DNA from: Acidimicrobiales bacterium
Lineage (GTDB): Bacteria; Actinomycetota; Acidimicrobiia; Acidimicrobiales; JBOGGX01
Direction of reading: 5' to 3'
Assembly (NCBI GenBank): GCA_050744245.1
Contig: JBOGGX010000238.1
Location: forward strand, 287-64,286
Length of the DNA stretch: 64,000 nucleotides
The stretch's first letter is position 1. Each line of letters opens with the position of its first letter. The position numbers were made by a program, and so were the translations under genes. Under the pieces are notes generated by a model. That model saw only the letters and a list, made by a program, of their open reading frames with translations. It ran no database searches and had not been told where the DNA came from. Below, one piece after another: positions 29,402-61,967 of this stretch.

Positions 29402-29456
29402 GTTCAGACAACCCTCAGTCCGACTTCAGCCCCGCTTCAGATGCCCGGCCGAGACT
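29402..29456 (+). promoter_or_regulatory. S1: 4 x 11-bp phased hexamer array + -10-like hexamer, facing the priming glycosyltransferase
   Basis: GTTCAG-acaac-CCTCAG-tccga-CTTCAG-ccccg-CTTCAG-atgcccggcc-GAGACT. Hexamers start at 29402, 29413, 29424 and 29435. GTG at 29506 has GGAGG 7 nt upstream. Confidence 0.7.
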
Positions 29457-29505
29457 GCCGCTCGACCCAGCCAGAAGGCGGACGGGTGGGACAGGAGGGT
29501 CAACG

Positions 29506-31152
29506 GTGGGGCTTTCCCTACACGAGCGAGACGGACTACGACAACTCGACCAGCGGCGGCGGCGGCGACCCGGCCCACCCATCGCGGCCGTGCACGAGTC
29601 CCCCGGGTCCGAGCGCGACGACAATCGTGCTGCCGTACACCGCGATGGCGTCTGGCCCGACGATGCCGTGTCTCCCGATCGTCGCCCATCCGCGCTTCGC
29701 CGACGGCTGCTGGCCGTCGACATCGTCGCCCTCGTCGTTGGTTGGACCATCGGTTGGATGTTCTTCGGCGACGGACTCCGCGGCCCGGTGTTCGCCGTGA
29801 GCACCGGTGTCGGCATGGTTGCCGTCGGGGTCGTTGCCAGCATGGCCGCGTTCTCCGTCGCGTGCCTGTACCGCCCGCCGCTCAACGGCATCCGCTCGGG
29901 GGCCTTGGCTCGACTTGTTCAATGCATGGCGATCACCGCCGTCGTGGTGGTGGCCTGGCAGGCGCTCGTCGAGGACGTGATCCTCGGGCTCGCCATCGGA
30001 TCGGCCGCCGTCGCCCTGCTCACCACGGTCCTCGCTCGCTACGGGTTCGACGTGTGGCTGATCGGTCGGCGCGAACAGGGCGACTTCCGCACACGGGTCG
30101 TCGTGGCCGGTGCCGCCAACGAGACCACGACCCTCGTCGACTTCCTCGAGCTCAACCCGGAAGCCGGGTTCGAGCCGACCGCCATTGTCGGGGAGCGCCC
30201 GGCGATGGCGACCGACGCCACCGAGGTGGCGCCCTACCTCGGAACCCTGTCGCAGGCCCACGAGGCCGTGCGCCAGACCGGCGCCGCCGGCGTGCTCGTC
30301 GGTGCCAACGGGCTCCCGAGCGACACGGTGAACGAGCTGGTCCACCACCTGTCCCTGGCCGGCATCCCGGTGCATCTGTCCAGCGGGCTCACCGGCGTGT
30401 CCCGGGCCCGCTTCCGGACCGTCGCGCTGGCCCACGAGCCGATCGTCATGGTGCGACCGCCTCGCCACTCGGCCGTGCAGGAGCTGGCCAAGAGAGCGAT
30501 CGACATCGCCCTGGCCGCGGCCATGCTGGTGCTGGCCTCACCGATCCTGGCCGTCGCCGCCCTACTCATCAAGATCCACGACCGCGGCCCCATGCTGTTC
30601 CGCCAGCTGCGCATCGGCAAGGACGGCAAGCCGTTCACCGTGCTGAAGCTGCGCACCATGGAGGTCGACGCCGAGACGCGTCTGGCCGATCTGCGGCACC
30701 ACAACGAGCGCAACGGGCCGCTGTTCAAGGTGGCCCACGATCCGCGGGTCACCCCCGTCGGCGGGTTCCTCAGGGCCTCCGCGCTCGACGAGGTGCCCCA
30801 GCTCTTCAACGTCCTCGCCGGAACCATGAGCATCGTCGGACCCCGGCCCGCGCTTCCGGCGGAGACGGCAGAGTTCGACGACGAGCTCGGGCGCCGCCAT
30901 CTCGTGCGGCCGGGCGTGACCGGGCTCTGGCAGGTGGAAGCCAACCACAAGGCTTCCTTCGAGGAGTACCGCCGGCTCGACCTCTTCTACGTGGACAACT
31001 GGTCGGTCGGCCTCGACCTCGCCGTGATCATCGACACGGTCCCGGCCATCACTCGCCGAGCCCTCCGGGCTCTGCGTCGACCGGCACCGTCCGCCCCGGT
31101 GCCGGTCAGTTCGCCCCGACCCGTGCCCCGACCGATCGAAGTCGGTCGATGA
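29506..31152 (+). CDS. polyprenyl-phosphate glycosyl-1-phosphate transferase (WbaP/CpsE-type priming sugar transferase)
   Basis: 548-aa ORF. N-terminal TM segments are followed by a C-terminal bacterial sugar transferase domain: FRQLRIGKDGKPFTVLKLRTM...NGPLFKVAHDPRVTPVGGFLR..SLDEVPQLFNVLAGTMSIVGPRP. Confidence 0.85.
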   Translation: MGLSLHERDGLRQLDQRRRRRPGPPIAAVHESPGSERDDNRAAVHRDGVWPDDAVSPDRRPSALRRRLLAVDIVALVVGWTIGWMFFGDGLRGPVFAVSTGVGMVAVGVVASMAAFSVACLYRPPLNGIRSGALARLVQCMAITAVVVVAWQALVEDVILGLAIGSAAVALLTTVLARYGFDVWLIGRREQGDFRTRVVVAGAANETTTLVDFLELNPEAGFEPTAIVGERPAMATDATEVAPYLGTLSQAHEAVRQTGAAGVLVGANGLPSDTVNELVHHLSLAGIPVHLSSGLTGVSRARFRTVALAHEPIVMVRPPRHSAVQELAKRAIDIALAAAMLVLASPILAVAALLIKIHDRGPMLFRQLRIGKDGKPFTVLKLRTMEVDAETRLADLRHHNERNGPLFKVAHDPRVTPVGGFLRASALDEVPQLFNVLAGTMSIVGPRPALPAETAEFDDELGRRHLVRPGVTGLWQVEANHKASFEEYRRLDLFYVDNWSVGLDLAVIIDTVPAITRRALRALRRPAPSAPVPVSSPRPVPRPIEVGR

Positions 31153-31275
31153 CCGATCAGATCGCCGTCGAGCGGGCGCGCCGCCGTAGCGCGGTACGGC
31201 GCGACCGCGCCCCCACGACGGGTCGGCACGGGCGGGCGGGTTCGCTTCGCGGTCACGAGATCTGAGCCATCGACG

Positions 31276-32436
31276 ATGCTCCAGACAGTTGCCACCGGCG
31301 TCGCCGCCGCCCTCCTCGTTCCCGGCCTCGTGACCTCCACCCACCTTGGGGTGCTTGCAGGGGCGTCGCTGCGGTTTCGAGAGCGCCTGCCCAAGGGCGA
31401 CGTGCCGCCGATTCGATTCCTCGTGGTCATCCCCGCACACAACGAGGAACAGATGCTCGGCGACACCCTCCGGGCCATCAACACGGCGCGCCGAGAGCGC
31501 GACCAGGTCCTGGTCGTCGACGACCGCAGCCGCGACCGAACGTCGGAGATCGCAAAGGCCCACGGCGCGCTCGTACTGCGACGCAACCCCGGCGAAGAGC
31601 CCGGTCGGGCGGCCGCCCGGCAGGCGGCAGTCGAGTACTCCGCGGCGCTCGAGTGGGATGCCATGGTCATGATCGATGCCGACTCGGTCGTCGAGCCGGG
31701 CTTTTTCGACCTGTGTGAACGCATGTGCGCGACCGGCAGCGAGGTGTTCCAAGCCCGCAGCGAGGCCCAGCACGGCGACTCGCTGCTCGACCAGGTGGCG
31801 CTGGCGTCGTTCGCGCTCCAGGGCGTCACGATTCCGCGAGGCAGGGCCGCCCTGCGACTGCCGGTTCGGCTGCGGGGCACGGGCATGATCATGAGGCGCA
31901 ACATCGTTCGCCGCATGTCGTTCCATGCGAAGGCCGGGGAGGACCTTCAGGCTTCGCTTGACCTCCTGCGCGACGGGATCAGACCGGCACACCTCGATGC
32001 CGCCCGCCTCCGCTCGGCGAACGCCGGGTCCTGGGGTACGGCCACGACGCAGAAGCTCCGGTACGAGTCTGGGCGCTCGGCGGCCGCTCGCGCCTACGTC
32101 CCCGGCCTGTTCCGTACCCGGACCTGGGCCGGGCTCGAAGCGGCATGGTTCCTGCTGTCGCCGCCATTCGCGACCGCGGCCGGGTTGCTCGGCATCGGTG
32201 CCGCGTTGGCCCTGGTGGGTGGCGCCGTGCCGCTCGCCGTCGCGGGTGGCCTGGGAGTCGCGCTCCTGGCCTTCAGCCTCTCGGTTGGCGCAGTGCAGGC
32301 CAGGCTCGACCGCCGCTTCCTGCTCGCGCTCCTCGCCGCTCCGGGCTACGTCACCTGGAAGCTCGCGGTCCAGCTTCGAGCGATCGTCGGGCTCCGCCGA
32401 GGCCTCCGCGAGTTCGGGCCGACGGCGCGCAGCTGA
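31276..32436 (+). CDS. family-2 glycosyltransferase with C-terminal TM region
   Basis: 386-aa ORF with FLVVIPAHNEEQMLGDTLRAI..., VLVVDDRSRDRT and MIDADSVVEPGF (DxD-like). Hydrophobic C-terminal helices resemble processive or membrane GT2s. Confidence 0.85.
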   Translation: MLQTVATGVAAALLVPGLVTSTHLGVLAGASLRFRERLPKGDVPPIRFLVVIPAHNEEQMLGDTLRAINTARRERDQVLVVDDRSRDRTSEIAKAHGALVLRRNPGEEPGRAAARQAAVEYSAALEWDAMVMIDADSVVEPGFFDLCERMCATGSEVFQARSEAQHGDSLLDQVALASFALQGVTIPRGRAALRLPVRLRGTGMIMRRNIVRRMSFHAKAGEDLQASLDLLRDGIRPAHLDAARLRSANAGSWGTATTQKLRYESGRSAAARAYVPGLFRTRTWAGLEAAWFLLSPPFATAAGLLGIGAALALVGGAVPLAVAGGLGVALLAFSLSVGAVQARLDRRFLLALLAAPGYVTWKLAVQLRAIVGLRRGLREFGPTARS

Positions 32437-32600: not shown

Positions 32601-33428
32601 CTAGCCGTCGTCGGCCACAGGCCGGGGACGAAGCTGGAGGGTGCGGCCCGGGAGCGAAGTCATACGCCGTGCGGGCGCCGCGGCCACCGGGCGGGGAGCT
32701 CGCGCCCGGACCGACCGGTGCTTGGCGATCGACTCCGCGATGGCCGCGACCGCGAGCGTCAGCAACCCGCCGAGGGCGAGTGCGGCCATCGCCGATCGAA
32801 TGGTGGCCGAGAGGACCGTGGTGGTCTCGGCCGGCACAACCACGTCATCCGTGGTGATGAAATACCTCGGGTCGGTCCCTTGCGCCTCCTGCCGATCGTG
32901 GAGCACGGCCCTGACCTCGGCCAGCAGCACGGCGGCCGATGCGAGAGCGGCTTCGGGCGACGGCTCCTCTGCCGTCACTTCGATGATCGGTCCACGAGCG
33001 AAGTTCACGTTGCCGGCAACGTCATAGTCGCCGACGCCTCGCTCTTGAAGCGCCGCTCGCATCGTCTCGCCGGTGACGATGCGGGCGACGATGTCGACCA
33101 CGACAGAAAGATCGTTGAACCGCTCGTAGGCGTTCTCCGTGACCACGGTGGTCGCGGTGGGCGACAGCGCCGGCGGACTGGGAGGTTCGAGAAGCACCAT
33201 CGAGCCCGAGGCCTTGTACGTCGGCGGGGACGAAGCGACGGCGCCCGCGACCAGGAGCACGGTGAGGATCATGGCCGGCACTGTGACCCGCCACCGCCGA
33301 CCAACCAGCCGAAGGATCGATACGACATCCATGGAACGCCTCGTAGGTTCTGCTTCCTCCGCCGAAACCTCGCGAACGGTAGTCGCGGTCGGGACCGTTT
33401 CCTGGGCGAGGGAGAGATGTGCGTTCAT
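32601..33428 (-). CDS. Wzz-like polysaccharide chain-length determinant protein (no kinase domain), paralog 1
   Basis: Internal ATG (33428) of ORF 32601-33491. The fold is TM, then a periplasmic/extracellular region, then TM. About half the residues match 48609-49493 (e.g. RFNDLSV.VDIVAR, GP.IEVTA..PS.EAA, GTDPRY, TTTVL). Confidence 0.75.
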   Translation of the reverse strand: MNAHLSLAQETVPTATTVREVSAEEAEPTRRSMDVVSILRLVGRRWRVTVPAMILTVLLVAGAVASSPPTYKASGSMVLLEPPSPPALSPTATTVVTENAYERFNDLSVVVDIVARIVTGETMRAALQERGVGDYDVAGNVNFARGPIIEVTAEEPSPEAALASAAVLLAEVRAVLHDRQEAQGTDPRYFITTDDVVVPAETTTVLSATIRSAMAALALGGLLTLAVAAIAESIAKHRSVRARAPRPVAAAPARRMTSLPGRTLQLRPRPVADDG

Positions 33429-33492
33429 GGCCTGCTTCCTTTGACGCGAGCGTACCTGCGGACCCGCGGCTGAGAACCAGGCGGACCCCAAG

Positions 33493-33547
33493 CTTCAGGC
33501 GCGCCTCAGGGTGCCTTCAGCGGCCCTTCAAGGCTGGCTCGGACACT
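33493..33547 (+). promoter_or_regulatory. S2: 4 x 11-bp phased hexamer array + -10-like hexamer, facing the sugar-dehydrogenase operon
   Basis: CTTCAG-gcgcg-CCTCAG-ggtgc-CTTCAG-cggcc-CTTCAA-ggctggctcg-GACACT. Hexamers start at 33493, 33504, 33515 and 33526. ATG at 33585. Confidence 0.7.
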
Positions 33548-33584: not shown

Positions 33585-34856
33585 ATGGCAAGAGTGGAAA
33601 CCGCGAACAAGGTCGTTGTCGTCGGACTCGGCTACGTCGGCCTACCTCTCGCGCTCGAGGCCGTCGCGGCCGGGCACGACGTGACCGGGTACGACACCTC
33701 GACCGAGCGGGTCCGCCGGCTTCATGCCGCGGAGAGCTACGTCGACGACGTCGATGATGTCGACCTCAAGGAGGCACGCGAGACGGGCCGGTTCGTCGTG
33801 ACCGATCGCCTCGACGAGTGTCGCGGCTTCGACATCGCCATCATCGCCGTGCCCACACCACTGCGCGATGGCGCGCCAGAGCTCGAGTATGTCATCGGCG
33901 CCACGAAGGCGATCGGGACCATCCTCGCGGCCGGCGGCTGCGTCGTGCTCGAGTCGACCACCTACCCGGGCACGACCGAGCAACTGGTCGTGCCGCTCCT
34001 GGAGGAGACGTCCGGTCTGAAGGCCGGTCGAGACTTCTCCGTCGGCTACAGCCCCGAGCGCATCGACCCGGGCAACCCGGTCTGGACGATCGGCACCACA
34101 CCCAAGATCGTGTCGGGTATCGACCAGACGTCCGTCGAACGAGTGCGTCGGTTCTACGCCACGATCGTCGATCGGGTCGTGCCCGTGAAGGGCACCAAGG
34201 AAGCCGAGCTCGCCAAGCTCCTCGAGAACACGTTCCGTCACGTCAACATTGCCCTGGTCAACGAGCTCGCGGTCTATGCCCACGAGCTCGGGATCGACAT
34301 CTGGGATGTCATCGACGGCGCCGACAGCAAGCCGTTCGGCTTCATGCGGTTCTCGCCCGGCCCTGGGGTTGGCGGGCATTGCCTTCCCATCGACCCGAGC
34401 TACCTGTCGTGGCAGGTGCGGCGCCGACTGGGGACATCGTTTCGATTCATCGAGCTGGCGAACGACATCAACCAGCGCATGCCTGACTATGTCGTCAACC
34501 GCATCGGTCTCTCGCTGAACCGTCAACACCTCTCGGTCAGCGGTGCTCGGATCCTGCTGCTCGGCCTCGCCTACAAGCGGAACTCGGGCGACGCACGCGA
34601 GACACCTGCGGCCCGCGTCGCTGAACTGCTCGACCGGCTCGGCGCCGAGCTGCGCATCGCCGACCCACTGGTCGAGGAGAGCCCGTCGGTGCCGGGCCTG
34701 AGGGTCGAGGCCGACGCCGAGGAGATCGCTTCTGCCGACCTCGTCGTCGTGCTGACCGACCACGACGCGTTCGATTGGGACTCGGTGCGCACCAACGCTC
34801 GTGCGATCTTCGACACCCGTCACCGGCTGGAGGGACCGAACGTTGAACACCTCTGA
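33585..34856 (+). CDS. UDP-N-acetyl-hexosamine 6-dehydrogenase (UDP-glucose/GDP-mannose dehydrogenase family; WbpA/WecC-like)
   Basis: 423-aa ORF with VVVVGLGYVGLPLA, AIIAVPTP, GYSPERIDPGN, KLLENTFRHVNIALVNEL and GPGVGGHCLPIDP. Confidence 0.9.
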   Translation: MARVETANKVVVVGLGYVGLPLALEAVAAGHDVTGYDTSTERVRRLHAAESYVDDVDDVDLKEARETGRFVVTDRLDECRGFDIAIIAVPTPLRDGAPELEYVIGATKAIGTILAAGGCVVLESTTYPGTTEQLVVPLLEETSGLKAGRDFSVGYSPERIDPGNPVWTIGTTPKIVSGIDQTSVERVRRFYATIVDRVVPVKGTKEAELAKLLENTFRHVNIALVNELAVYAHELGIDIWDVIDGADSKPFGFMRFSPGPGVGGHCLPIDPSYLSWQVRRRLGTSFRFIELANDINQRMPDYVVNRIGLSLNRQHLSVSGARILLLGLAYKRNSGDARETPAARVAELLDRLGAELRIADPLVEESPSVPGLRVEADAEEIASADLVVVLTDHDAFDWDSVRTNARAIFDTRHRLEGPNVEHL

Positions 34857-35991
34857 GAAGTCCACGGCCCTTGGAGCGGGACGGCTCACGCCGCATGACG
34901 TCGAGGGCCTGCTCGACTTCGCCGACGGTGTGCTCCCGACCCTGCGCCATCGAGATGGCCTGTTCTGCTTCGATCGAGGATTCGACTCACCCGAACTTCG
35001 CGGCGTGTCGGTTCGCTACTCGATCCTCGTCCTGCTCGGACTCCTGAGGCGACGGACGACCGGCCGCGACTTCAGCATCGACGTCGAGGATCTCCATCGC
35101 AGCATTGCCAGCCGAGTCGACACGTTGGACGTCGGCGACCTCAGCCTGCTGCTCTGGGCCGAGGTCCGGATGGGCGCGGCGTCGGCTCCCGTGACGCTGG
35201 CCCGGCTCGCTCGGCGCTCGGCCGACCAGGAACGCCAAGGCCGACTCGAAGGCATGGAGGCCGCCTGGTTCGTCCTCGGCACGGCGGAGGCCACGGTGGC
35301 CGGGCTTCCCGCTCGGGAGCAGTTCGATGCCGCCTACGCCCACTTCCGGGCTCGTCGCTCACCTTCCTCCCCGCTCTTCCGTCACAACGCCACGGGGCGG
35401 GGGCGGGCCCGGCTTCCCAACTTCGCCACCCAGATCTACAGCCTGCTCGCCTTGGCCGAGACGGTCCGTCACGGCCTGGCCCACGACGCAGAGGGCGCCG
35501 GCCGCGCTCTGGCCGCCAAGCTCATCGAGCTCCGGCTGCCCGACGGTGGTTGGCCGTGGCTCTTCCACGCCGACCGGGGTTCCGTGGTCGAGCGCTACGA
35601 GGTGTACTCCGTGCACCAGGACGCCATGGCCCCCATGGCGCTCTTCGCCCTGGCCGAGGCGACCGGCGAACAGTCCTATGCCCGGGCCGCGGTCGAGGGG
35701 TTCCAATGGTGCTTCGGGAACAACGAGCTCGGCTTCGACTTCTACGACCGGGCCAACCACTTTGCGCATCGCTCGATCAAGCGGCGAGGTTGGGCGCACT
35801 CGGCCAACCTGTGGACCAACACCGCCCTCGGCGGCGTCCTGGGATCCGCCGCGAGAACCGACGCCGGCGGCCTCGAGATCAACGCCACCTGTCGGCCCTA
35901 TCACCTGGGGTGGATCCTCGAGGCATGGTCGGGGCGCGAGCATCTCAACTCCCTCGTGGCCGGCGAGCAGACGACCGAGGTTGTCGGATGA
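34843..35991 (+). CDS. hypothetical protein, possibly (alpha/alpha)-toroid fold; start uncertain
   Basis: ORF 34801-35991 with a TTG at 34843 overlapping the upstream stop. Motifs such as LRLPDGGWPWLF and VHQDAMAPMALFALAEATGE recall terpenoid-cyclase/epimerase-like toroid repeats. No firm family was assigned. Confidence 0.55.
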   Translation: MNTSEKSTALGAGRLTPHDVEGLLDFADGVLPTLRHRDGLFCFDRGFDSPELRGVSVRYSILVLLGLLRRRTTGRDFSIDVEDLHRSIASRVDTLDVGDLSLLLWAEVRMGAASAPVTLARLARRSADQERQGRLEGMEAAWFVLGTAEATVAGLPAREQFDAAYAHFRARRSPSSPLFRHNATGRGRARLPNFATQIYSLLALAETVRHGLAHDAEGAGRALAAKLIELRLPDGGWPWLFHADRGSVVERYEVYSVHQDAMAPMALFALAEATGEQSYARAAVEGFQWCFGNNELGFDFYDRANHFAHRSIKRRGWAHSANLWTNTALGGVLGSAARTDAGGLEINATCRPYHLGWILEAWSGREHLNSLVAGEQTTEVVG

Positions 35992-36746
35992 CGACGCTCA
36001 TCTCGCCGTCGCCGGTACGCCGGGCCCATCTCTTCGAAACCGAGGTCGACGCCCTCACCCTGGCCGAGACGGTCGATCGGGCGTTCGAGCTCGTCGATGC
36101 GGGCGCGATCACCCAGCACGTCGTGCTCAATGCGGCCAAGGTCGTCCAGATGAGCAAGGACGATCGGCTCAAGGAGATCATCGACTCCTGTGGGTTGGTC
36201 AACGCCGACGGACAGTCCGTGGTCTGGGCCAGCCGGATCCTCGGACGGCCTCTGCCCGAACGAGTTGCGGGCATCGACCTGTTCAACGCCATCGTCGAGC
36301 GAGCGGCGAACACCGGGCACTCGCTGTTCTTCCTCGGGGCCACCGACGACGTCCTGAACGAGATGGTCCGCCGTCTTCGAGCGCGCCATCCTGGCCTCGT
36401 GGTCGCCGGCCATCGGAACGGCTACTGGAGCGATGACGACGAAGTCGTCGCCGCCGTCCGAGCGGCCAGCCCCGACTTTCTGTTCCTCGCCATCCCCAGC
36501 CCCCGCAAGGAGTTCTGGTTGAGCGAACACCTCCGGCCCCTCGGCGTGCCCTTCGTCATGGGGGTGGGTGGAACCTTCGACGTCGTGGCCGGCAAGGTCC
36601 GTCGAGCCCCGACCTGGGTCCAGCGCCTCGGTTGTGAATGGATCTACCGCCTGGCACAGGAACCGAGACGCATGTGGAAGCGCTATCTGAAGGGCAACTC
36701 CGCCTTCATGATGCTCACGGCTCGCGAGTGGTGGCGATCGGCATGA
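35988..36746 (+). CDS. WecB/TagA/CpsF-family (GT26) glycosyltransferase
   Basis: ATG at 35988 overlaps the upstream stop (ATGA). Motifs are VVLNAAKVVQMSKD..L.EII....LVNADGQSVVWASR, SLFFLGATDDVLNEMV, FLFLAIPSPRKEFW, VMGVGGTFDVVAGKVRRAP.WVQR.G.EWIYRL.QEPRRMWKRY. Confidence 0.85.
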   Translation: MTTLISPSPVRRAHLFETEVDALTLAETVDRAFELVDAGAITQHVVLNAAKVVQMSKDDRLKEIIDSCGLVNADGQSVVWASRILGRPLPERVAGIDLFNAIVERAANTGHSLFFLGATDDVLNEMVRRLRARHPGLVVAGHRNGYWSDDDEVVAAVRAASPDFLFLAIPSPRKEFWLSEHLRPLGVPFVMGVGGTFDVVAGKVRRAPTWVQRLGCEWIYRLAQEPRRMWKRYLKGNSAFMMLTAREWWRSA

Positions 36747-38260: not shown

Positions 38261-38265
38261 AGGTT

Positions 38266-39294: not shown

Positions 39295-39341
39295 CGGAGA
39301 TCGATCACTCTGCGCATGGGAGCCCGGATCGATCGTTCGGC

Positions 39342-42070: not shown

Positions 42071-42082
42071 GCGTGTGCGTCC

Positions 42083-43417: not shown

Positions 43418-43435
43418 CCGTTCCGTCTGGATCCG

Positions 43436-48298: not shown

Positions 48299-48386
48299 GA
48301 CTCGCCTCGACCGCCCTCCGCCGTTCGGGCCCGGGCCATGACGGCACCGCGCTCGTCGGTCCCCCGACGGTGCGGGAACCGGGACG

Positions 48387-48441: not shown

Positions 48442-48495
48442 CGTGACCTGTGGGAACTGGCTGGCCGCCGGCGGAGGTGGGCGGCGGGCGACATC

Positions 48496-48512
48496 CTGAG
48501 GTTCGGCTGAAG
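48496..48512 (-). promoter_or_regulatory. extra two-hexamer half-array (CTTCAG-N5-CCTCAG on minus strand)
   Basis: Plus-strand CTGAGG (48496) and CTGAAG (48507) are 11 bp apart. They share the orientation of S4 and lie 55 bp further upstream in the S4/wzz2 divergent region. Confidence 0.35.
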
Positions 48513-48608
48513 CCTTCGCCCTCTCTCTGTCGTCAGCACCGGCGCGTCGGTAGTGTCCGACGTCGAGGACACGATGGCGGGCCGTGACCGCTTCGTTCCA
48601 CACATCAC

Positions 48609-49493: not shown

Positions 49494-49515
49494 GCACTCG
49501 AGCCGAGCGGTCGCG

Positions 49516-53066: not shown

Positions 53067-53222
53067 TTTGGGCGGGCCCCTCTGATTGTCGACGAGCGAA
53101 ACGGTTCCAAGGCCCGCCAACCCAGGAGAGTGGGCGCTCCCCTCAGTCGACCCGGTGGAATGGCCTCGTCGCTGAATCTTTACTTACGGGCCGCAACATG
53201 CTTGCAACATGGGGCCGGTGCG

Positions 53223-53969: not shown

Positions 53970-55051
53970 CAGCGAACAACAGCACCCCGCAGCACGATGC
54001 GGCGGGGGTCCGACAGCACCCGAGGATCCAGCCTCGGATCAGCGTCGTAGACCGCCAGGTCGGCGGGTCCACCCTCGGCGAGGCTCGCCAGGCCGAGCCA
54101 CTCGCGGGCCCGCCACGACCCCGCCGCCACCGCTTCGGTCGCCGGAAGGCCGGCGTGATGCAGCAGCAGGATCTCGTCGACCAGGCGGCCATGCGGGACG
54201 GCACCACCGGCATCAGAGCCCGTGTAGATGGCGACGCCGGCCTCGAACGCGGCCCGGACGACGTCCCGAAACCGGTCCTTCGCACTGCGCATCGACGCCG
54301 CGAAGCGAGGGAACCTGGCCTCGGCCTGGGCCGCGATCGACTCGAAGTTCCATTCGACGTTCACCATCGTCGGCACCAGCGCGGTGCCCTGCGCAGCCAT
54401 ACGGTCCAGCAAGCCGGCGTCAAGACCGCAGCCGTGTTCGATCGAGTCGACCTTGGCGTCGACCAAGGCCTCGACGGCCGCCTCACCGAAGGTATGGACG
54501 GCGACGCGGACGCCGGCACCATGGGCCGTTTCGACCGCCTGGTTGACCGCGGCCGCATCAAAGGTGGGGCCGATGTCCCCGATGTCCCTGTCGATCCAGT
54601 CGCCGACCAGCTTGACCCACCCCGTCCCGGCCGCCGCCTGCTCGAGGACTCGACCGGCGAGCTCATCGGGCGTGCACTCGATCGCCAGCCCTGGGAGGTA
54701 GCGCCGAGGCGGCGCGAGATGCCGACCACAACGGATGAGGCGTGGCACATCCGGATCGTCGTCGAGCGTGCGATAGTCGATGGGAGAGCCGGCGTCACGG
54801 ATGGCCAGCACGCCGGCGTGACGGTCCTCGAGGGCCAAGTCCTTCGCCGCGGCGACGCTCTCGACCGGACGGGAATCCCGACCGATGCCGATGTGGCAGT
54901 GGGCGTCGACGAGCCCGGGCAGGACGAAGCCCCGGTCCGCGATCGTCTCCGCTCCCGTCACCGGGTCGTACGTCAATCGGTCACCGACGATGTAGATGTC
55001 GCGTTGCGCCTCCTCGGGCAACACGACCCCGGCCACGTGGAGCGGGCGCAC
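53969..55051 (-). CDS. amidohydrolase-family metal-dependent hydrolase
   Basis: 360-aa ORF with GFVLPGLVDAHCHIG (HxH metal site), VAVHTFGE and IYTGSDAG. Confidence 0.85.
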   Translation of the reverse strand: MRPLHVAGVVLPEEAQRDIYIVGDRLTYDPVTGAETIADRGFVLPGLVDAHCHIGIGRDSRPVESVAAAKDLALEDRHAGVLAIRDAGSPIDYRTLDDDPDVPRLIRCGRHLAPPRRYLPGLAIECTPDELAGRVLEQAAAGTGWVKLVGDWIDRDIGDIGPTFDAAAVNQAVETAHGAGVRVAVHTFGEAAVEALVDAKVDSIEHGCGLDAGLLDRMAAQGTALVPTMVNVEWNFESIAAQAEARFPRFAASMRSAKDRFRDVVRAAFEAGVAIYTGSDAGGAVPHGRLVDEILLLHHAGLPATEAVAAGSWRAREWLGLASLAEGGPADLAVYDADPRLDPRVLSDPRRIVLRGAVVR

Positions 55052-55063
55052 GAGTGACGCCGG

Positions 55064-55909
55064 CTACCCGACGACCGGGCTGGTTCCGGTGGCGAGGTCG
55101 AGGATCGTCTCGAACGCCGAGGGCTCTGTTGTGCAGGCGCCGAGCTCGGTGTCCTTGATCCGGCCGTGGTAGTCGCTGGAGCCGGTGGCAACCAGCCCGA
55201 AGGCTGCGGCGATCTCGCGAAGCCGACGCCTGTCGTCCACGTCGTGACTCGGGTGATCGACCTCGAGCCCGGCCAGCCCGGCGTCGACCAGGCGTCGGGT
55301 CATCTCGGTGAGACCATCGCCGAGGGAGTGACCCTCAGCGAGCGGATGGGCCAGCACCGCGACGCCGCCCGCTCGCCTGATCAGCCCCACCGCCACCACG
55401 GGATCGAGGACGTACTTCTCCGCGTACGCGCGGCCGCCGTGCCCCACCCAGGCCGGCGTGAACGCCGACCGCACATCCGGCACGACGCCGAGGTCGACCA
55501 GGGCCGACGCGATATGGGGCCGACCAATGGTTCCATCGGCGGCGGCGCCCGCGACGTGGTCCCACGAGATGGGCACGCCGAGCTCCTGCAGCTTCGTCAC
55601 CATGACGTGGGCCCGCCGCACCCGGTCAGTCGCCAGCCGCTCCAGCTCGCACGTGAGCTCGGGCGCAGCCGGGTCGAAGAGGTACGCCAGCATGTGAAGG
55701 CTTCGCCCGTCCGCTCCGCATGAGATCTCGGCCCCCGGCACCAGCGTCAGACCCGACGGCAGCGCCGCGGCGGCATCACGCCAACCATCCACGGTGTCGT
55801 GGTCGGTCAGGGCGATGACGTCAACTGCGAGCGCCGCCTTGGCGACGAGGTCGGCCGGGGTGTCCGTGCCATCCGAGCGCGTGCTGTGGGTGTGGAGGTC
55901 GATCCTCAT
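55064..55909 (-). CDS. PHP-domain phosphoesterase (TrpH/YciV-like)
   Basis: 281-aa ORF with MRIDLHTHSTRSDGT, ALTDHDT, AHP and GSSDYHG. Confidence 0.85.
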   Translation of the reverse strand: MRIDLHTHSTRSDGTDTPADLVAKAALAVDVIALTDHDTVDGWRDAAAALPSGLTLVPGAEISCGADGRSLHMLAYLFDPAAPELTCELERLATDRVRRAHVMVTKLQELGVPISWDHVAGAAADGTIGRPHIASALVDLGVVPDVRSAFTPAWVGHGGRAYAEKYVLDPVVAVGLIRRAGGVAVLAHPLAEGHSLGDGLTEMTRRLVDAGLAGLEVDHPSHDVDDRRRLREIAAAFGLVATGSSDYHGRIKDTELGACTTEPSAFETILDLATGTSPVVG

Positions 55910-55941
55910 GGGTCGGCGGCGACGCTAGTGGAGCACCTCCG

Positions 55942-56547
55942 TCAGGTAAGGGCGTCACCCACGGCGACCAGGTGGAACTCGGTGAGCCCGTTGTGCGCAC
56001 CCTCGACCCGGTAGCACCGCTCGCAATCGGGACAGGTCAGTTCGGGCGAGAGGCGCACCCCGCAGCGGCAGACCCAGTCGATGAACCGAGCCGGGTTCCC
56101 GGCGACCAGCGCGTGGGCCGGCACGTCGCGGATGACCACCGACCCTGCCGCGACGAACGCATTCGTGCCGATCGTGCGGCCGCACACGATGGTTGCGTTG
56201 GCGCCGATCGTCGCCCCGGCGCGGACGAGCGTCCTGGAGAACTCGGCTCCGGCCTTCTTGACGTGGGCCCGCGGCGTGAGGTCGTTCGTGAACACGACGT
56301 TGGGTCCCAGAAACACGTCGTCTTCGACGGTGACGCCGTCCCAGACGAGCACGGCGTTCTTCACCGTCACCCGGTCACCGACGACGGCCCCACCCTCGAT
56401 GAACGCGTGGTCGCAGATGTTGCAGTCGGCACCGACGACGGCCATCGGCAACACGTGGGCGAACGCCCAGATGCGCGTGCGGGGTCCGACCTCGTCGCTC
56501 TCGCAGAGGCCGTTGGGGTGGACGAACACAGACCGGTCGGGTGTCAT
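55942..56547 (-). CDS. left-handed beta-helix N-acetyltransferase, WbpD/WlbB-like (UDP-2-acetamido-3-amino-2,3-dideoxy-glucuronate N-acetyltransferase type)
   Basis: 201-aa ORF with FVHPNG......VGPRTRIWAFAHV......VGADCNICDHAFIE..AVVGDRVTVKNAVLVWDGVTVEDDVFLGPNVVFTND..PR....T.V..GATIGANATIVCG..IG..AFVAAGSVV..DVP..ALVAGNPAR, plus a C-terminal CxC...CxxC tail. Confidence 0.8.
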   Translation of the reverse strand: MTPDRSVFVHPNGLCESDEVGPRTRIWAFAHVLPMAVVGADCNICDHAFIEGGAVVGDRVTVKNAVLVWDGVTVEDDVFLGPNVVFTNDLTPRAHVKKAGAEFSRTLVRAGATIGANATIVCGRTIGTNAFVAAGSVVIRDVPAHALVAGNPARFIDWVCRCGVRLSPELTCPDCERCYRVEGAHNGLTEFHLVAVGDALT

Positions 56548-57692
56548 GCCGCCTCCGTTCGCACCGCCGCGACCAACTCGGCGACAGCTCGGTCCTGCTG
56601 GGCCTCGGTGATCCCGGGATAGATCGGCAGCGACACCATCTCCGTGGCGGCGGCCTCGGCGACCGGAAAGTCACCGTGTCGGTGACCCAGGCCCGAGAAC
56701 GCAGGCTGAAGGTGGAGCGGCACCGGGTAGTGGATGCCCGCCCCGATCCCCGCGGCGTTGAGTCGGGCCAGCACCTCGTCCCGAGCCGCCACCCGGACGA
56801 CATACAGGTGCCACACGTGCTCGTTCCCGGCCATGACCGCGGGAAGGCGGATGTTCGGCTCGTCCTTGAGCAGCTCGTGGTAGCGCCGGGCCGCAGCCCG
56901 ACGCGCGTCGTTCCACCAGTTGAGTCGGCGCAGCTTGGCCCGCAACACGACCGCCTGCAGGGTGTCGAGACGGGAGTTCATCCCGGCGAGCCCGTGCTCG
57001 TACCTTCTCGTTCCGCCGTGGTTGCGCAGGGCACGGACGACGTCGGCCGACCAACTGTCCTGCGTGAGGACGGCCCCGGCATCACCGTAGGCGCCCAGGT
57101 TCTTGCCCGGATAGAAGCTGGTCGCGGCCATGGCCCCGACGCTGCCGCTCGGCCGGCCGTAGCGAGTGGCCCCCTGCGACTGGGCCGCATCCTCGATGAT
57201 GTCGACATCGGATGGAATGGCGCGGACCAGATCTTCGATGGGCGCCATCTGGCCGTAGAGGTGCACGGCGATGACGGCTCGAGTCCGACGACTCAACCGA
57301 TCGGCGACCTGTCGCGGATCGATCAGCAGATACCTGGGATCGCAGTCGACCAGCACAGGCCGGGCGCCAACGCTCATGACCGCCTCGGCCGTGGCGATGA
57401 AGGTGTTGGCCGGAAGCAGGACCTCGTCGCCGTTTCCGACGCCTCGGGCTCGGAGTGCGAGCTCGAGGGCGTCGGTGCCGTTGGCGACGCCTACGCAGTG
57501 CGCGGCCCGGCTGAACCGAGCGAACTCACCTTCGAAGGACTCGACGTCCGGACCGAGCACAAAGGAGCCCTCGGCGACGACCCGGGCCCAGCCCGCCGCC
57601 ACCTCGGCCGCAACCTGTTCGTGCTGGATCGACAGGTCGACGAGCGGGATGGTCTCGATTCTCGGTTCGGCACGGATCAAGGGCGGGGTCAC
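56544..57692 (-). CDS. DegT/DnrJ/EryC1/StrS-family PLP aminotransferase (WbpE-like)
   Basis: 382-aa ORF with IPLVDLSIQHEQV, FVLGPDVESFEGEFA, GVANGTDALELAL, LLPANTFIATAEAV and 4-nt overlaps with both neighbours. Confidence 0.9.
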   Translation of the reverse strand: MTPPLIRAEPRIETIPLVDLSIQHEQVAAEVAAGWARVVAEGSFVLGPDVESFEGEFARFSRAAHCVGVANGTDALELALRARGVGNGDEVLLPANTFIATAEAVMSVGARPVLVDCDPRYLLIDPRQVADRLSRRTRAVIAVHLYGQMAPIEDLVRAIPSDVDIIEDAAQSQGATRYGRPSGSVGAMAATSFYPGKNLGAYGDAGAVLTQDSWSADVVRALRNHGGTRRYEHGLAGMNSRLDTLQAVVLRAKLRRLNWWNDARRAAARRYHELLKDEPNIRLPAVMAGNEHVWHLYVVRVAARDEVLARLNAAGIGAGIHYPVPLHLQPAFSGLGHRHGDFPVAEAAATEMVSLPIYPGITEAQQDRAVAELVAAVRTEAA

Positions 57693-58393
57693 GCGGTCAA
57701 CACCTCTCGGGCTAGTTCAACGGTTCGAACGAATCGGGCCGGCACGCCGGCCCACACCTCGGCGTCCCCCACGCTTCGGGTTACGACTGCTCCCATGCCG
57801 ACCAATGACCATGACCCGACACGAAGGTTTTCTCGGACGAGGCAGCCGGCGCCGAGGTAGGCGCCGGTTTCGACGGCGACGCCGCCCGCGAGTCTGACCC
57901 CGGCGCCGACCGTGACGAAGTCGCCGACAAGGTCGTCATGGGTCAGGACGGCCAACGGCATGATGCCGACGTGGGCTCCGACGGTCACATCGACGGTGAC
58001 CACGACGCCCGCGAGGACGACCGTCCCCTCGCCGAGTTGGCACGACGTCGGGACCACGGCCGTGGGATGGACGATCGTGGCGTAGCGATCGGGAAGGAGT
58101 CCAAGGCGGCGGACGATCCGGTGCTTCGACGTGTAGTCGCCGGGATGCCCGGTGCACACGACGACCTTGGTGGCAGGCATCTCGGCGAGGCGATCGATCC
58201 CGCCCAGCACGGGGACCCCGGAGACGACGGTGCCCCAGCGGGACGGCTCGTCGTCGAGGAATCCCAGCACGTCCCAGCGGTTCCGGCCGCTGATCGCGGC
58301 CCGCTCCTCGTTGGTGGCGCGCACGACCTCGGCCGTTTCGCGACCGAATCCGCCGGAGCCGATGATGACGAGTGGTTCAGGCCGCCGGGTCAC
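57689..58393 (-). CDS. NeuD/PglD/VioB-family sugar N-acetyltransferase
   Basis: 234-aa ORF. An N-terminal Rossmann-like LVIIGSGGFGRETAEVV is followed by a C-terminal hexapeptide-repeat domain. Confidence 0.85.
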   Translation of the reverse strand: MTRRPEPLVIIGSGGFGRETAEVVRATNEERAAISGRNRWDVLGFLDDEPSRWGTVVSGVPVLGGIDRLAEMPATKVVVCTGHPGDYTSKHRIVRRLGLLPDRYATIVHPTAVVPTSCQLGEGTVVLAGVVVTVDVTVGAHVGIMPLAVLTHDDLVGDFVTVGAGVRLAGGVAVETGAYLGAGCLVRENLRVGSWSLVGMGAVVTRSVGDAEVWAGVPARFVRTVELAREVLTA

Positions 58394-58437
58394 GGCGCAC
58401 CTCGTCGTGCGGTGAGATGGCGACGACGACCAAGGGA

Positions 58438-59625
58438 TCAGCTCCGCCGCTCGGCCGCGGTGGCAATGACATCGACCACCAGGTCCTGGTCGGCCTCGGT
58501 GAGATCATGGAAGAGCGGAAGGATGAGCGACCGCTCGGTCAGGCGCTCCGTCACCGGCAGTGGTTGGTGCGGGTGGCCGGCGTACGCCGGCTCGAGGTGC
58601 GAGGCCATGATGCCTCTGCGGGCGCTGACTCCGTGATCCGCCAGGATCCCCAGCAGGTGATTGCGCTCGACCGGGAACTCGTCGGGCAGGCACACCCAGA
58701 ACGACTGGAAGTTCGTCGTGCCGTACCCGGGATCCGCAGCCATGATCGCCTGCTCGAGCTGGGGAATCTCGACGAGCTTCCGTTGGTACCGCTGAGCCAG
58801 CAGGCGTCGCCGCGACACGATGAGATCGAGTCGCGAGAGCTGCACGAGACCGATCGCGGCCTGGACGTCGGTCATGCGGTAGTTGAAGCCGGTCTCGACG
58901 TACGCCTCCAGGACCGGGCCCTGGGCCAGGTGTCGGTCGGCCGCGCTCACGTTCATGCCGTGCTCCCGCAGCCGACGGCAACGCGCGGCCCACTCCTCGT
59001 TCGAGGTCACCAGCATCCCGCCCTCACCCGTGGTGATCACCTTGCGGGGGTGGAAGGAGAAGGCGGCCAACTCGGCCCGGGCCCCGACGGGTTGGCCGGC
59101 GTAGGTGGACCCGATGGCGCAGGCCGCGTCCTGGATGACGGTGACACCGAGCGGGTCGCAGAGGACACGGATCGGGTCGAGCTCGGCCGGGACGCCTCCC
59201 TGGTCGACCACGATGACGGCGCGGGTTGCGGGGGTGAGTGCGCTCCTGATCGATTCCACCGTGAGGTTCTGGGTGATGGGGTCGACGTCCGCGAATACGG
59301 GATGGGCGCCCACGTAGCGCACGGCGTTGGCCGTGGCGATGAACGACAGCGAGGGAACGAGGACGTCGTGGCCGGGACCGATGCCCGCAACCACGAGGGC
59401 GAGATGGAGCGCCGTGGTGCACGACGAGACGGCGACCGCGTGAGCGGCACCGACCCGGCGGGCGAACGCCTCTTCGAACTGCGCGACCCGGGGCCCTTGG
59501 GCGACCCAGCCCGAGAGGACGGCCTCGCTGGCGGCGACCGCTTCCTCGGGACCGAGCGTCGGCCGCATCACCGGGATCGAACGCTTGGACCGGGCCGTGG
59601 GGACGAGCTCGCTGAGCACGCTCAT
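58438..59625 (-). CDS. DegT/DnrJ/EryC1/StrS-family PLP aminotransferase (second copy)
   Basis: 395-aa ORF with IPVMRPTLGPEE, GWVAQGPRVAQFEEAFA, SSCTTALHLAL, LVPSLSFIATANAV and SFHPRKVITTGEGGM. Confidence 0.9.
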   Translation of the reverse strand: MSVLSELVPTARSKRSIPVMRPTLGPEEAVAASEAVLSGWVAQGPRVAQFEEAFARRVGAAHAVAVSSCTTALHLALVVAGIGPGHDVLVPSLSFIATANAVRYVGAHPVFADVDPITQNLTVESIRSALTPATRAVIVVDQGGVPAELDPIRVLCDPLGVTVIQDAACAIGSTYAGQPVGARAELAAFSFHPRKVITTGEGGMLVTSNEEWAARCRRLREHGMNVSAADRHLAQGPVLEAYVETGFNYRMTDVQAAIGLVQLSRLDLIVSRRRLLAQRYQRKLVEIPQLEQAIMAADPGYGTTNFQSFWVCLPDEFPVERNHLLGILADHGVSARRGIMASHLEPAYAGHPHQPLPVTERLTERSLILPLFHDLTEADQDLVVDVIATAAERRS

Positions 59626-60647
59626 CGTCGTGCGCCCTCCGTCTCCTGGACCTCAGCCGACATCCACGAGTCCGAGTCCCGCTCGGCCTGCCACCACTCG
59701 ACCAGCCGCGACAAGCCCTCGTCCAGATCGACCTCGGCCGAGAAGCCGAGGCGGTCGCGAGCGGCGGTCGTGTCGGCCAGCCGGCGGGTGACCGCATTCA
59801 CCTTGCGCTCAGGACCGTGCTCGGGCGAGAGATCTGACCCCATGACCAGGAGCAGCGCCGTGGCCAGACCAGCCAGGCTGGTTTCCGTTCCGGCGGCGAT
59901 GTTGAAGACCTCGTCGCTGACGCCGGAGACCGCGGCGAGCAGGTTGGCTCGGGCGACGTCGTCGACGTAAACGAAGTCCATGGTCTGAAGGCCATCGCCG
60001 AGGATGAGCGGAGGTTGACCGGCGGCGATGCGCTCCATCCATCGCACGAGCACCTCGGTGTACACGCCGAAGATGTCCATTCGGGGGCCGTACACGTTGA
60101 AGTAGCGGAGGGCGACGTAGTCCAGGTCGTGCATGTCGGCGAAGCTCCGGAGCAGACCCTCGTTGAACGACTTGGCCGCTCCGTACAGCGTGCGGTTGCC
60201 GTACGGATGCTGGTGCTCCCTCGTCGGAAACTCCTCGGCGAGCCCGTAGACCGAGGCCGACGACGCGGCGACCACCTTGGGGACGCCCGCCGCAGCCGCG
60301 GCCTCGATGACGTTGAACGTGCCGTCGACGAGGACTTCGAGCGCCAGCCGGGGATCCTCGGCACACTGCGTGATCCGGATCGCGGCCTGATGGAACAGGA
60401 CGTCGACGCCACGCATCGCTCGAGCGACGAGGTCGCGGTCTCGGATGTCGCCCTCGATCACCTCGACGCGACCGGTGGCGATGGCGTCGGCCAGGTTGGC
60501 GCGGCGGCCGCGAACGAAGTTGTCGAGGACGACGACCTCGACATCGGTCGTCCCGACCAGCTGATCGGTGATGGCCGACCCGATCATGCCGGCGCCGCCG
60601 GTGATCAGGATGCGGGCTCCATCGAGCCTGGGGTAGCGAGTGGTCAC
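59622..60647 (-). CDS. NAD-dependent epimerase (extended SDR, GalE/WbpP-like)
   Basis: GTG at 60647 overlaps the upstream stop (GTGA). Motifs are ILITGGAGMIGS, ASSASVYG and YGAAKSF (YxxxK). The upstream 350 codons of ORF 59622-61718 are out-of-frame read-through. Confidence 0.9.
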   Translation of the reverse strand: MTTRYPRLDGARILITGGAGMIGSAITDQLVGTTDVEVVVLDNFVRGRRANLADAIATGRVEVIEGDIRDRDLVARAMRGVDVLFHQAAIRITQCAEDPRLALEVLVDGTFNVIEAAAAAGVPKVVAASSASVYGLAEEFPTREHQHPYGNRTLYGAAKSFNEGLLRSFADMHDLDYVALRYFNVYGPRMDIFGVYTEVLVRWMERIAAGQPPLILGDGLQTMDFVYVDDVARANLLAAVSGVSDEVFNIAAGTETSLAGLATALLLVMGSDLSPEHGPERKVNAVTRRLADTTAARDRLGFSAEVDLDEGLSRLVEWWQAERDSDSWMSAEVQETEGARR

Positions 60648-61699
60648 AGCGTCTCCTGGGCGCGGTCGCGAACGGGGAGCGGCACCATCGCACCCCCGCG
60701 GTCGATGCTCCGATCGATCGCCTCGAGCACCTCCAGCACCCACAGACCCGACTCGCCACCGGTCGCCGCGGGTCGGCGCTCGCGAATCGCGCCGACGAGC
60801 TCTGCGATGACGTTCTGCAGCGCCTCGGTCTCGCCCAGGGCCGGAGCGATCATGTCGCCGACGCGGTACGAGATCAGCGTGTCGCGCCGGGCCTCGAGGT
60901 TCATCGGCCCCTCGAGGTCGACGCCGCGATCGTGCACCGACAGCCGCTGGGCCGGATGCATGTCGTCCCACACCAGCATCCGCCGTGACCCTCCGACGTG
61001 CATCGTGCGGACCTTGGTCGGGCTGAGCCAGTTCACGTGGGCGTGGGCGATGCCGCCGTTGGCGAGAGGAAGCGTGAGATACCCGACGCACGAGTGGCCG
61101 GCTCCGATCGGATCGGCGCCGTGGGCCGCGACACTGACCGGCCGGGCGTCGTCGGCCAGAACGAAGTCGAGTATCGAGAGGTCGTGCGGCGCCAGGTCCC
61201 AGAAGACATCGATGTCCGACTGGACCAGGCCCAGGTTGATACGCACCGAGTCGACGTATTGGATCTCGCCCAGCTCGCCGCCACGGACCAGCTGGTGGAT
61301 CCTCTGGACGGTCGGCGTGTAGCAGTAGGTGTGGTCGCACATGAGGACCACACCGGCGTCGCGTGCAGCATCGACGAGTTTGCGGCCTTCGTCGACCGAC
61401 GTGGCCAACGGCTTCTCGACCAGCACGTGCTTCCCTGCGTCGATGCAGGCGAGCGCCACCGATGTGTGCGTGTGGGCCGGGGTGGCGATGGCGACGGCGG
61501 CGACGTTGGGGTCGTCGAGCACGATGTCGAGGTCGTCGGTGATGGGAACCGTGCTCTGCCGACCGACCGCCTTGGCCGCCTGGTTGATGTCGAGGTCGCA
61601 GACCCAGCGGAGCGTGGCATCGTCGCGCCGAAGAATGTTGCGGACGAGGTTCGGCCCCCAATAGCCCGCTCCGATGACGGCCATACCGATCGGCTTCAT
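60644..61699 (-). CDS. Gfo/Idh/MocA-family oxidoreductase (WbpB-like)
   Basis: ATG at 61699 has GAGGGAGGG 6 nt upstream. The sequence begins MKPIGMAVIGAGYWGPNLVRN... and the gene encodes 351 aa. Confidence 0.9.
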   Translation of the reverse strand: MKPIGMAVIGAGYWGPNLVRNILRRDDATLRWVCDLDINQAAKAVGRQSTVPITDDLDIVLDDPNVAAVAIATPAHTHTSVALACIDAGKHVLVEKPLATSVDEGRKLVDAARDAGVVLMCDHTYCYTPTVQRIHQLVRGGELGEIQYVDSVRINLGLVQSDIDVFWDLAPHDLSILDFVLADDARPVSVAAHGADPIGAGHSCVGYLTLPLANGGIAHAHVNWLSPTKVRTMHVGGSRRMLVWDDMHPAQRLSVHDRGVDLEGPMNLEARRDTLISYRVGDMIAPALGETEALQNVIAELVGAIRERRPAATGGESGLWVLEVLEAIDRSIDRGGAMVPLPVRDRAQETL

Positions 61700-61835
61700 G
61701 CCGGCCCTCCCTCGGCAACCGCTGACTGGAGAGCGCCGGGCGTTCGCCGGGCGGCGCAGGCTGGGCGCGCGTTGCCGCGCTTCCATCGGTCGCTGCTGGG
61801 GCCTCGGTTGCCGCTCATGCTCTCCCTGTTCCTGT

Positions 61836-61873
61836 CCCGGTCGGGCTGCGCCACCGGACGCAACCCGACCGGG
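61836..61873 (-). other. stable hairpin in the long leader of the S5 operon
   Basis: A perfect 10-bp inverted repeat CCCGGTCGGG ... CCCGACCGGG with an 18-nt loop lies between the predicted -10 (61913-61918) and the start codon (61699). Confidence 0.35.
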
Positions 61874-61912
61874 GGCCTGTGGCCGGGCGTCACGCGCCCA
61901 CACCTGGATCGC

Positions 61913-61967
61913 AGTATCGGGAGGGAGGCTGAAGGTGGCCTGAAGCGCCACTGAGCCTTGGCTGAAT
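61913..61967 (-). promoter_or_regulatory. S5: 4 x 11-bp phased hexamer array + -10-like hexamer, facing the sugar-modification operon
   Basis: Read on the minus strand: ATTCAG-ccaag-GCTCAG-tggcg-CTTCAG-gccac-CTTCAG-cctccctccc-GATACT. Plus-strand CTGAAG/CTGAGC/CTGAAT start at 61929, 61940, 61951 and 61962. The start codon is 213 nt downstream. Confidence 0.7.

Follow-up and report, generated by a model that had tools for sequence, protein, structure and literature searches.

We analysed a 64,000-nt stretch of DNA (hereafter the window; 70% G+C) from an Acidimicrobiales bacterium, an uncultured soil actinobacterium (GCA_050744245.1, contig JBOGGX010000238.1, positions 287–64,286 of the forward strand), and found that its polysaccharide locus carries five arrays, each made of four TTCAG-type hexamers at 11-bp phasing and each followed 10 nt later by a -10-like hexamer. 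Acidimicrobiia carry these arrays as conserved cis-elements, whose geometry, conservation, intergenic and gene-facing position and linkage to a regulator gene can all be read directly from the genomes compared. An initial annotation of this DNA had read them as activator-dependent promoters of at least five transcription units, and all sequence-level tests available to us came out in favour of that reading. We consider it likely that the arrays are activator-dependent promoter elements bound by the OmpR/PhoB-family regulator encoded in the same locus at 28330–29100, four protomers of which would replace the -35 contact. By analogy with solved relatives, we infer that this regulator binds the arrays, that it activates rather than represses and that four protomers are engaged at each array.

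S1, 29402–29440, plus strand: array GTTCAG-n5-CCTCAG-n5-CTTCAG-n5-CTTCAG, facing the priming glycosyltransferase gene.
S2, 33493–33531, plus strand: array CTTCAG-n5-CCTCAG-n5-CTTCAG-n5-CTTCAA, facing the UDP-glucose dehydrogenase gene.
S3, 43379–43417, minus strand: array GCTCAG-n5-GCTCAG-n5-CTTCAG-n5-CTTCAG, facing the GT1/GT4/flippase/beta-helix operon and beginning 19 nt past the stop codon (43436) of the DUF4082 protein gene.
S4, 48403–48441, minus strand: array GTTCAG-n5-TCTCAG-n5-CTTCAG-n5-CTTCAG, facing the gene of the giant DUF4082 protein.
S5, 61929–61967, minus strand: array ATTCAG-n5-GCTCAG-n5-CTTCAG-n5-CTTCAG, facing the amino-sugar operon.

Direct reading confirmed the coordinates, strands and sequences first given for these five arrays, together with their regularity: 19 of 20 hexamers contain TCAG (the sole exception being hexamer 4 of S2, CTTCAA), hexamer 2 is nCTCAG and hexamer 3 is CTTCAG in every array, and the phasing is 11 bp in 15/15 intervals. 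Four TCAG cores at 11-bp phasing, with up to two mismatches allowed, occur in the window at these five places only (as 11 overlapping registers), against 0.05 expected per window from dinucleotide shuffles, and loosening the search to three mismatches gave no additional array place within the window. The annotation's remark that no such array lies elsewhere stands for full arrays, there being no sixth place, and has one addition, a half-site returned by a two-hexamer search:

Extra half-site, 48496–48511, minus strand: CTTCAG-n5-CCTCAG, about 70 nt upstream of S4.

This half-site sits in the divergent region common to S4 and the Wzz gene and may be a remnant or serve as an auxiliary site for a dimer.

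To place the arrays in a wider context, we scanned 185,579 species, each represented by one genome (596 Gb in all), with the exact pattern TCAG-n6-CTCAG-n5-CTTCAG-n5-CTTCAG, whose 21 fixed bases should by our own arithmetic, at equal base frequencies, match by chance about 0.3 times in the 596 Gb. The scan returned 58 loci, of which 34 come from Acidimicrobiales, Microthrixaceae or unclassified Actinomycetota metagenome-assembled genomes (MAGs), often with two or three arrays per contig. Another nine were plain 11-bp tandem repeats in unrelated bacteria and were discarded (loci L002, L019, L025, L027, L030, L039, L046, L050 and probably L015; the hosts include Gemmatimonadaceae, Chondromyces, Streptomyces, Cupriavidus, Deinococcus and Burkholderiales). 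With a relaxed pattern, the window and the 34 Acidimicrobiia-type loci then yielded 56 arrays with 11-bp intervals throughout, and 31 non-redundant ones gave the consensus.TTCAG..A..cCTCAG-n5-CTTCAG-n5-CTTCAG, followed after 10 nt by [G/C/A]A.a.T, with most spacer positions variable. Two of the conserved positions lie outside the search pattern, namely T at position 2 of hexamer 1 (29/31) and A in spacer 1 (24/31).

The genes that these arrays face recur as well. By tblastn with the window proteins, arrays precede orthologs of the priming glycosyltransferase in about 20 Acidimicrobiia genomes, and they precede orthologs of the DUF4082 protein in six (L005, L008, L042, L047 and L051, plus L043, where the DUF4082 homolog downstream was recognised by tblastn), so that this protein, a conserved presumed target of arrays in six or more related genomes, is linked to the glycan locus. 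Further targets in relatives are GT2 glycosyltransferases, a sugar C-methyltransferase, a 2OG-Fe(II) oxygenase, an acyltransferase_3 protein and a major facilitator superfamily (MFS) transporter. A homolog of the window's regulator (43–67% identity) was found in 17/34 of the array-anchored 8-kb loci, and the array usually lies between this gene and the priming glycosyltransferase gene, the two being mostly divergent and co-directional in L034 and L055. Back-to-back divergent arrays 7–41 nt apart were seen in L008, L012, L014, L042, L043, L053 and L088, one for each divergent gene (e.g., DUF4082 and MFS transporter).

Downstream of the arrays, the -10-like hexamer nAnnnT noticed in the initial annotation is found exactly 10 nt after hexamer 4 at all five sites:

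S1, 29451–29456, plus strand: GAGACT.
S2, 33542–33547, plus strand: GACACT.
S3, 43363–43368, minus strand: CAGGAT, with an in-frame GTG 5 nt downstream (43357–43355).
S4, 48387–48392, minus strand: GATACT.
S5, 61913–61918, minus strand: GATACT, with an in-frame GTG 9 nt downstream (61903).

Across the window and the 34 relatives' loci, nAnnnT stands exactly 10 nt downstream in 55/56 arrays against a background of 1.9%, at a position that was not part of the search pattern. Among the 31 non-redundant arrays its first base is G, C or A and never T (0/31 against a background of about 15% T), and position 4 is mostly A; the lack of T at the first position suggests selection for a weak -10, that is, for intrinsically weak promoters. 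For S3 and S4 we likewise agree that a consensus -35 is absent, as no sigma-70-type -35/-10 promoter was found in 43000–49000, the region holding S3 and S4. Taken together, the arrays show what is seen at promoters where an activator replaces the -35, i.e., head-to-tail repeats about one helical turn apart, a fixed distance to the -10 and no consensus -35 (S3 and S4).

Leaderless mRNAs are common in Actinobacteria, and if ANNNT is a -10, a spacing of 6 nt from hexamer to start codon is what such mRNAs would be expected to have. In the MFS-transporter target family an ATG or GTG does lie 6 nt past the hexamer in L005, L008, L042 and L043, and in L085 the gene called in the source record begins exactly 6 nt after it. 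These putative leaderless starts lend real but narrow backing to nAnnnT as a genuine -10. An ATG at offset 7 in the GT2 family was set aside as a leaderless start, being out of frame or uncertain.

With five near-identical 55-nt layouts in 33 kb, one could in principle suppose that they are copies of one element; this class of explanation, be it a transcribed RNA motif, a mobile repeat (a cassette like a miniature inverted-repeat transposable element) or a chance repeat, is effectively refuted. A mobile cassette is ruled out by its unconserved surroundings: when the five sites were aligned with 60-nt flanks, only the hexamers were common to all while the flanks differed, and the array-anchored comparison adds only the A and T of the downstream hexamer to what is conserved, most spacer positions varying. 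An RNA motif is ruled out by the lack of any Rfam match at the arrays and by their fold scores (mean minimum free energy z-score of -0.04); direct repeats, moreover, cannot pair with one another, and the arrays lie upstream of a conserved -10 and of leaderless start codons. A chance repeat is at odds with the shuffle expectation reported above.

A regulator that occupies the arrays could also work as a repressor, or in both directions, by keeping RNA polymerase off promoters for which a -10 is enough. Actinobacterial sigma-A promoters often have no recognisable -35, and many need the -10 alone. The half-site upstream of S4 could serve looping or cooperative occupancy, and M. tuberculosis PhoP can repress as well as activate (PMC11825685). 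We nonetheless hold repression to be very unlikely, given that the fixed 10-nt register to the -10 (55/56) and the head-to-tail orientation toward the gene are the geometry of an activator that replaces the -35, which a repressor has no need of, and that a first -10 base that is never T points to promoters that are weak on their own.

We next turn to the protein proposed to bind these sites.

Regulator gene, 28330–29100, minus strand: OmpR/PhoB-family response regulator of 256 aa, candidate array-binding activator.

The protein combines a receiver domain (PF00072, E = 2.6e-10, 40.9 bits) with a C-terminal winged helix (Trans_reg_C, PF00486, E = 5e-24), and among solved structures M. tuberculosis PrrA comes closest to it (1ys6, E = 1.4e-45, full length), with PhoP and MtrA next. 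It reaches no NCBIfam equivalog cut-off (MtrA 162.6 bits vs 300; PhoB 143.7 vs 296.2; a second PhoB model 112.3 vs 471). Classical two-component systems have a cognate histidine kinase beside the regulator, and here there is none: Pfam scans of the window's open reading frames (ORFs) from about 15.5 kb onward gave no histidine kinase, the window's six frames contain no H-box, and the 34 Acidimicrobiia loci contain no canonical H-box and one degenerate H-box-like match (L047, ASHELRGPV, without a G2 box). The gene after the regulator is a tRNA in the window and gatB in relatives.

When the window protein was aligned with 120 homologs, none of them below 54% identity (n=121), the phospho-acceptor D56 proved to be kept in 119 sequences, T/S84 in 116 and K106 in 100, while position 12 is S, T or A in 115 and only 44 have an acidic residue at position 13. 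The window protein itself keeps D13, D14, D56, T84 and K106 and has A12 where the first acidic residue normally sits. With no adjacent kinase and a degenerate acidic pair, this protein is an orphan regulator and may be atypical among response regulators. For the same reasons, namely its orphan state and the degenerate Mg-binding pair, a dependence on acetyl phosphate, which the initial annotation had proposed to add or leave out in binding assays, is not to be assumed, while its assignment of the protein to the OmpR/PhoB type and the linkage to the arrays were upheld. The recognition helix NLVEVHVSALRRKLE is near-invariant, with at least 117/121 sequences agreeing at every position save V197 (110/121), and in this it parallels the conserved TTCAG core of the arrays. 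The family also lacks the usual PxxDG after the phospho-Asp, and for some of the homologs (P0001–P0120) the stored annotation has no receiver-domain Pfam match at all.

Since the hexamer conservation in loci found by pattern is partly a product of ascertainment, we fetched homologs of the regulator by protein instead. The search gave at least 120 clusters at 54% identity or more, from which eight on long contigs (54–81% identity) were taken. All eight, fetched without reference to the DNA motif, lie in polysaccharide loci with at least one array beside each (8/8), and every one of the 18 arrays near them is intergenic and points at the next gene (18/18, gene positions being those in the gene tables of the source records and two arrays, L086 -8808 and L089 -14201, having been re-registered by eye). 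This set shows natural variation that the pattern search had no means of returning: hexamer 4 can read CTTCAA (S2 likewise) or TTTCAA, GTTAAG and CTTAAG occur, hexamer 3 can be CCTCAG, and one interval is 10 bp (L089). An array faces a UDP-glucose dehydrogenase gene, as S2 does, in L087 (+12648) and L088 (-7095). A metagenome scan with the regulator gave four close relatives: the two that include the priming-glycosyltransferase side (96% and 66% identity) carry an array, and the other two, on contigs of 2.6–4.6 kb with different neighbours, have none. Arrays and regulator are thus co-conserved in orthologous loci in both directions of ascertainment, and the gene-facing, intergenic placement proposed for the arrays holds throughout the protein-anchored set.

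Could the arrays be promoter elements of some other OmpR/PhoB-type or winged-helix factor encoded elsewhere, for example one from a complete two-component system, while the adjacent regulator does something else? The missing kinase and degenerate acidic pocket of that regulator would fit this, as would the same layout adjoining unrelated OmpR-type response regulator and kinase genes in Thermomicrobiales and Granulosicoccus, which makes it evident that other regulators can use TTCAG repeats. We judge this unlikely, however: the regulator gene is beside an array in 8/8 protein-anchored and 17/34 pattern-anchored 8-kb loci, the Acidimicrobiia loci have no further DNA-binding protein in common, and the recognition helix is nearly invariant across the family.

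Several observations weigh against activation of the arrays by the locus regulator, and we gather them here. The regulator is without a kinase partner, and its acidic pocket is degenerate across the family; its linkage to the arrays is guilt by association inside one syntenic locus. Most comparative loci were retrieved via the hexamer pattern, for which the regulator-anchored set is a correction, if a small one. The leaderless starts amount to essentially one orthologous gene family and one short ORF. The motif also occurs outside this regulator clade: in Chloroflexota, similar arrays were seen near other regulators of the OmpR type. Finally, the regulon falls short of the whole locus, as the Wzz/Wzy unit (48609–50916, plus strand) and the gene at 32601–33429 (minus strand) have no array.

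The mechanism we propose is modelled on solved OmpR/PhoB-family activation complexes. Each array would form the upstream half of an activator-dependent promoter whose -10, [G/C/A]AnnnT, is weak; with ANNNT taken as -12 to -7, counting puts the hexamers at about -61/-56, -50/-45, -39/-34 and -28/-23, where they would take the place of a -35 element as head-to-tail half-sites one helical turn apart. The regulator would bind as two tandem dimers, its four protomers each placing one winged helix on a hexamer, and the promoter-proximal protomers would stand in for the contact between sigma region 4 and the -35 and recruit RNA polymerase. At least five transcription units would in this way be switched on together, taking in the priming and further glycosyltransferases, the making of nucleotide sugars and amino sugars, the flippase and the giant DUF4082 surface protein.

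Pfam scans upheld the gene assignments made earlier downstream of S1–S5, as well as the identity of the regulator, and the units are as follows.

Transcription unit 1, 29506–32436, plus strand, behind S1: priming glycosyltransferase (Bac_transf) and a GT2 glycosyltransferase.
Transcription unit 2, 33585–37930, plus strand, behind S2: UDP-glucose dehydrogenase, a protein of unknown function, a WecG-type glycosyltransferase and UDP-GlcNAc 2-epimerase.
Transcription unit 3, 38266–43357, minus strand, behind S3: GT1 and GT4 glycosyltransferases, flippase (Polysacc_synt_3) and a beta-helix protein.
Transcription unit 4, 43436–48298, minus strand, behind S4: a 1620-aa protein with DMFA2_C, Ig-like Big_5/Big_7 and four DUF4082 stretches.
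Transcription unit 5, 51897–61903, minus strand, behind S5: GFO/MocA oxidoreductase, epimerase/dehydratase, two DegT aminotransferases, two hexapeptide transferases, PHP protein, amidohydrolase, methyltransferase and a protein of unknown function; a putative single operon, judged only by common strand and short gaps.

We compared this arrangement with known regulators of the same structural class. At GlnR promoters, four protomers sit head-to-tail on four short sites with six-base spacers in the -35 region, where they make contacts to sigma-A region 4, the beta flap and alpha (PMC10235972). Actinobacterial GlnR, with its a1-b1-a2-b2 sites, resembles the window system in being an orphan OmpR/PhoB regulator with four sites at 11-bp phasing; it differs in governing nitrogen metabolism genome-wide, whereas the window regulator appears tied to one glycan locus, and in a search of the PDB the window protein was nearer to PrrA, PhoP and MtrA than to GlnR-like chains. 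The GlnR site consensus, gTnAc / GaAAc, is also unlike TTCAG.

In E. coli, 10 bp separate the pho box from the -10, and the core sites of B. subtilis PhoP are four hexamers spanning about -60 to -20. PhoB/PhoP pho-box promoters (those of E. coli PhoB and of PhoP in Streptomyces, M. tuberculosis and B. subtilis) share direct repeats with 11-bp periodicity and replacement of the -35 with the arrays, and their tandem dimers form tetramers or hexamers. They part from the arrays in sequence (CTGTCAT, GTTCACC or TTAACA vs TTCAG), in that the window regulator has no PhoR partner, and in targets, which here are glycan and not phosphate genes. In the tetrameric activation complex of M. tuberculosis PhoP (4PhoP-TAC), the contact of sigma-A region 4 with the -35 is displaced (PMC11825685). 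The initial annotation's label of PhoB/OmpR-style promoters survives as a statement about a PhoB-like mode of working; by equivalog scores, motif and targets, the window regulator is neither PhoB itself nor part of the Pho regulon.

SARPs (ActII-ORF4, DnrI, AfsR) have an OmpR-type winged helix and recognise direct repeats at 11-bp spacing just upstream of the -10 that replace the -35; each repeat unit is a heptamer, the distance to the -10 is about 8 bp, and the targets are antibiotic clusters. A pathway-specific activator with an OmpR-type winged helix that is encoded in its own target cluster is common ground with the window system, but SARPs have a BTAD domain and no receiver, whereas the window protein has a receiver and Trans_reg_C and, by Pfam, no BTAD. 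M. tuberculosis PrrA, the highest-scoring solved relative, differs from the window regulator in having a partner kinase, PrrB, and an acidic pocket of the canonical kind, and we know of no comparable TTCAG array for it. Because motif, equivalog scores, domain content and targets differ, we place the window system outside the Pho, GlnR and SARP families; to judge from these likenesses, it would work as GlnR, PhoP and SARP activators do without belonging to them.

We found no description in the literature of a TTCAG repeat motif for response regulators or for Acidimicrobiia. The C. glutamicum MprA motif (TKTTAAGAAM) was considered and is unrelated to the arrays, and the M. tuberculosis MprA box, which might be CTCAG-like, is a lead for comparison. 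Acidimicrobiia abound in soils, in activated sludge and in seawater, almost all of them uncultured, and to our knowledge essentially no transcription-factor regulon has been defined experimentally in them. The type of mechanism is familiar and adds no new regulatory principle; the binding motif is the part for which we met no earlier description. What the finding supplies is a precise, highly conserved cis-element with a named candidate regulator and a defined target set, i.e., a surface polysaccharide or glycoconjugate pathway plus the DUF4082 giant. The motif can be used to annotate promoters, likely transcription starts (leaderless ones included) and glycan regulons in hundreds of MAGs, and it links DUF4082 giants, whose function is unknown, to the glycan locus as putatively co-regulated members.

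Arrays of this kind were also seen outside Acidimicrobiia. Five Chloroflexota/Thermomicrobiales loci (L021, L045, L048, L049, L054) have the layout of 4 x YTCAG, 10 nt and ANNNT too, and an OmpR-type regulator lies within four of the five (none was found in L021), with a kinase H-box detected only in L045. The arrays of L021, L048, L049 and L054 precede HMA-like 'CGGGG' proteins, and that of L045 precedes an HtrA-like protease. In Granulosicoccus (L017, L022) two arrays each stand beside a regulator and a kinase, without ANNNT. TTCAG repeats may accordingly be read by a wider OmpR subfamily. We also put forward, as a speculation that we would ourselves call doubtful, that the regulator clade comprises phosphorylation-independent, cluster-situated glycan 'pseudo-response regulators', acting as tetramers on 4 x TTCAG with input by abundance, ligand or Ser/Thr phosphorylation, and that it uses an old cross-phylum TTCAG code of an undescribed OmpR subfamily. 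If this were true, the promoter grammar of the Chloroflexota loci would be an old TTCAG recognition code shared across phyla.

Some features of the surrounding DNA are recorded here in their own right. On the minus strand, a hairpin (GTTCCGTC-n16-GACGGAAC, window 43420–43452) spans the DUF4082 stop codon and ends 2 nt ahead of hexamer 1 of S3; no T-run follows it, and it may serve to separate transcription unit 4 from unit 3 as a terminator or insulator. A tRNA gene (28129–28201, minus strand), the sole Rfam match in the window, lies directly downstream of the regulator, and past it come phage-integrase fragments (26213–27697, minus strand) and a DDE transposase (24458–25612, minus strand), on the side where relatives have gatB. 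The stretch 24458–28201 suggests an insertion of mobile DNA at the tRNA, next to the glycan locus.

The 5' leader of the priming glycosyltransferase gene (29457–29505 in the window) was compared with those of relatives L001, L003, L006, L010, L013, L020, L033, L041, L057 and L086–L091. The leaders have in common GGCGGAYGGG, a repeated GCGGACA and a small 5' hairpin (CCCGC..GCGGG or CCTCC..GGAGG). Their sequence is conserved while covariation is weak (RNAalifold), and the leader may be a second, post-initiation control element.

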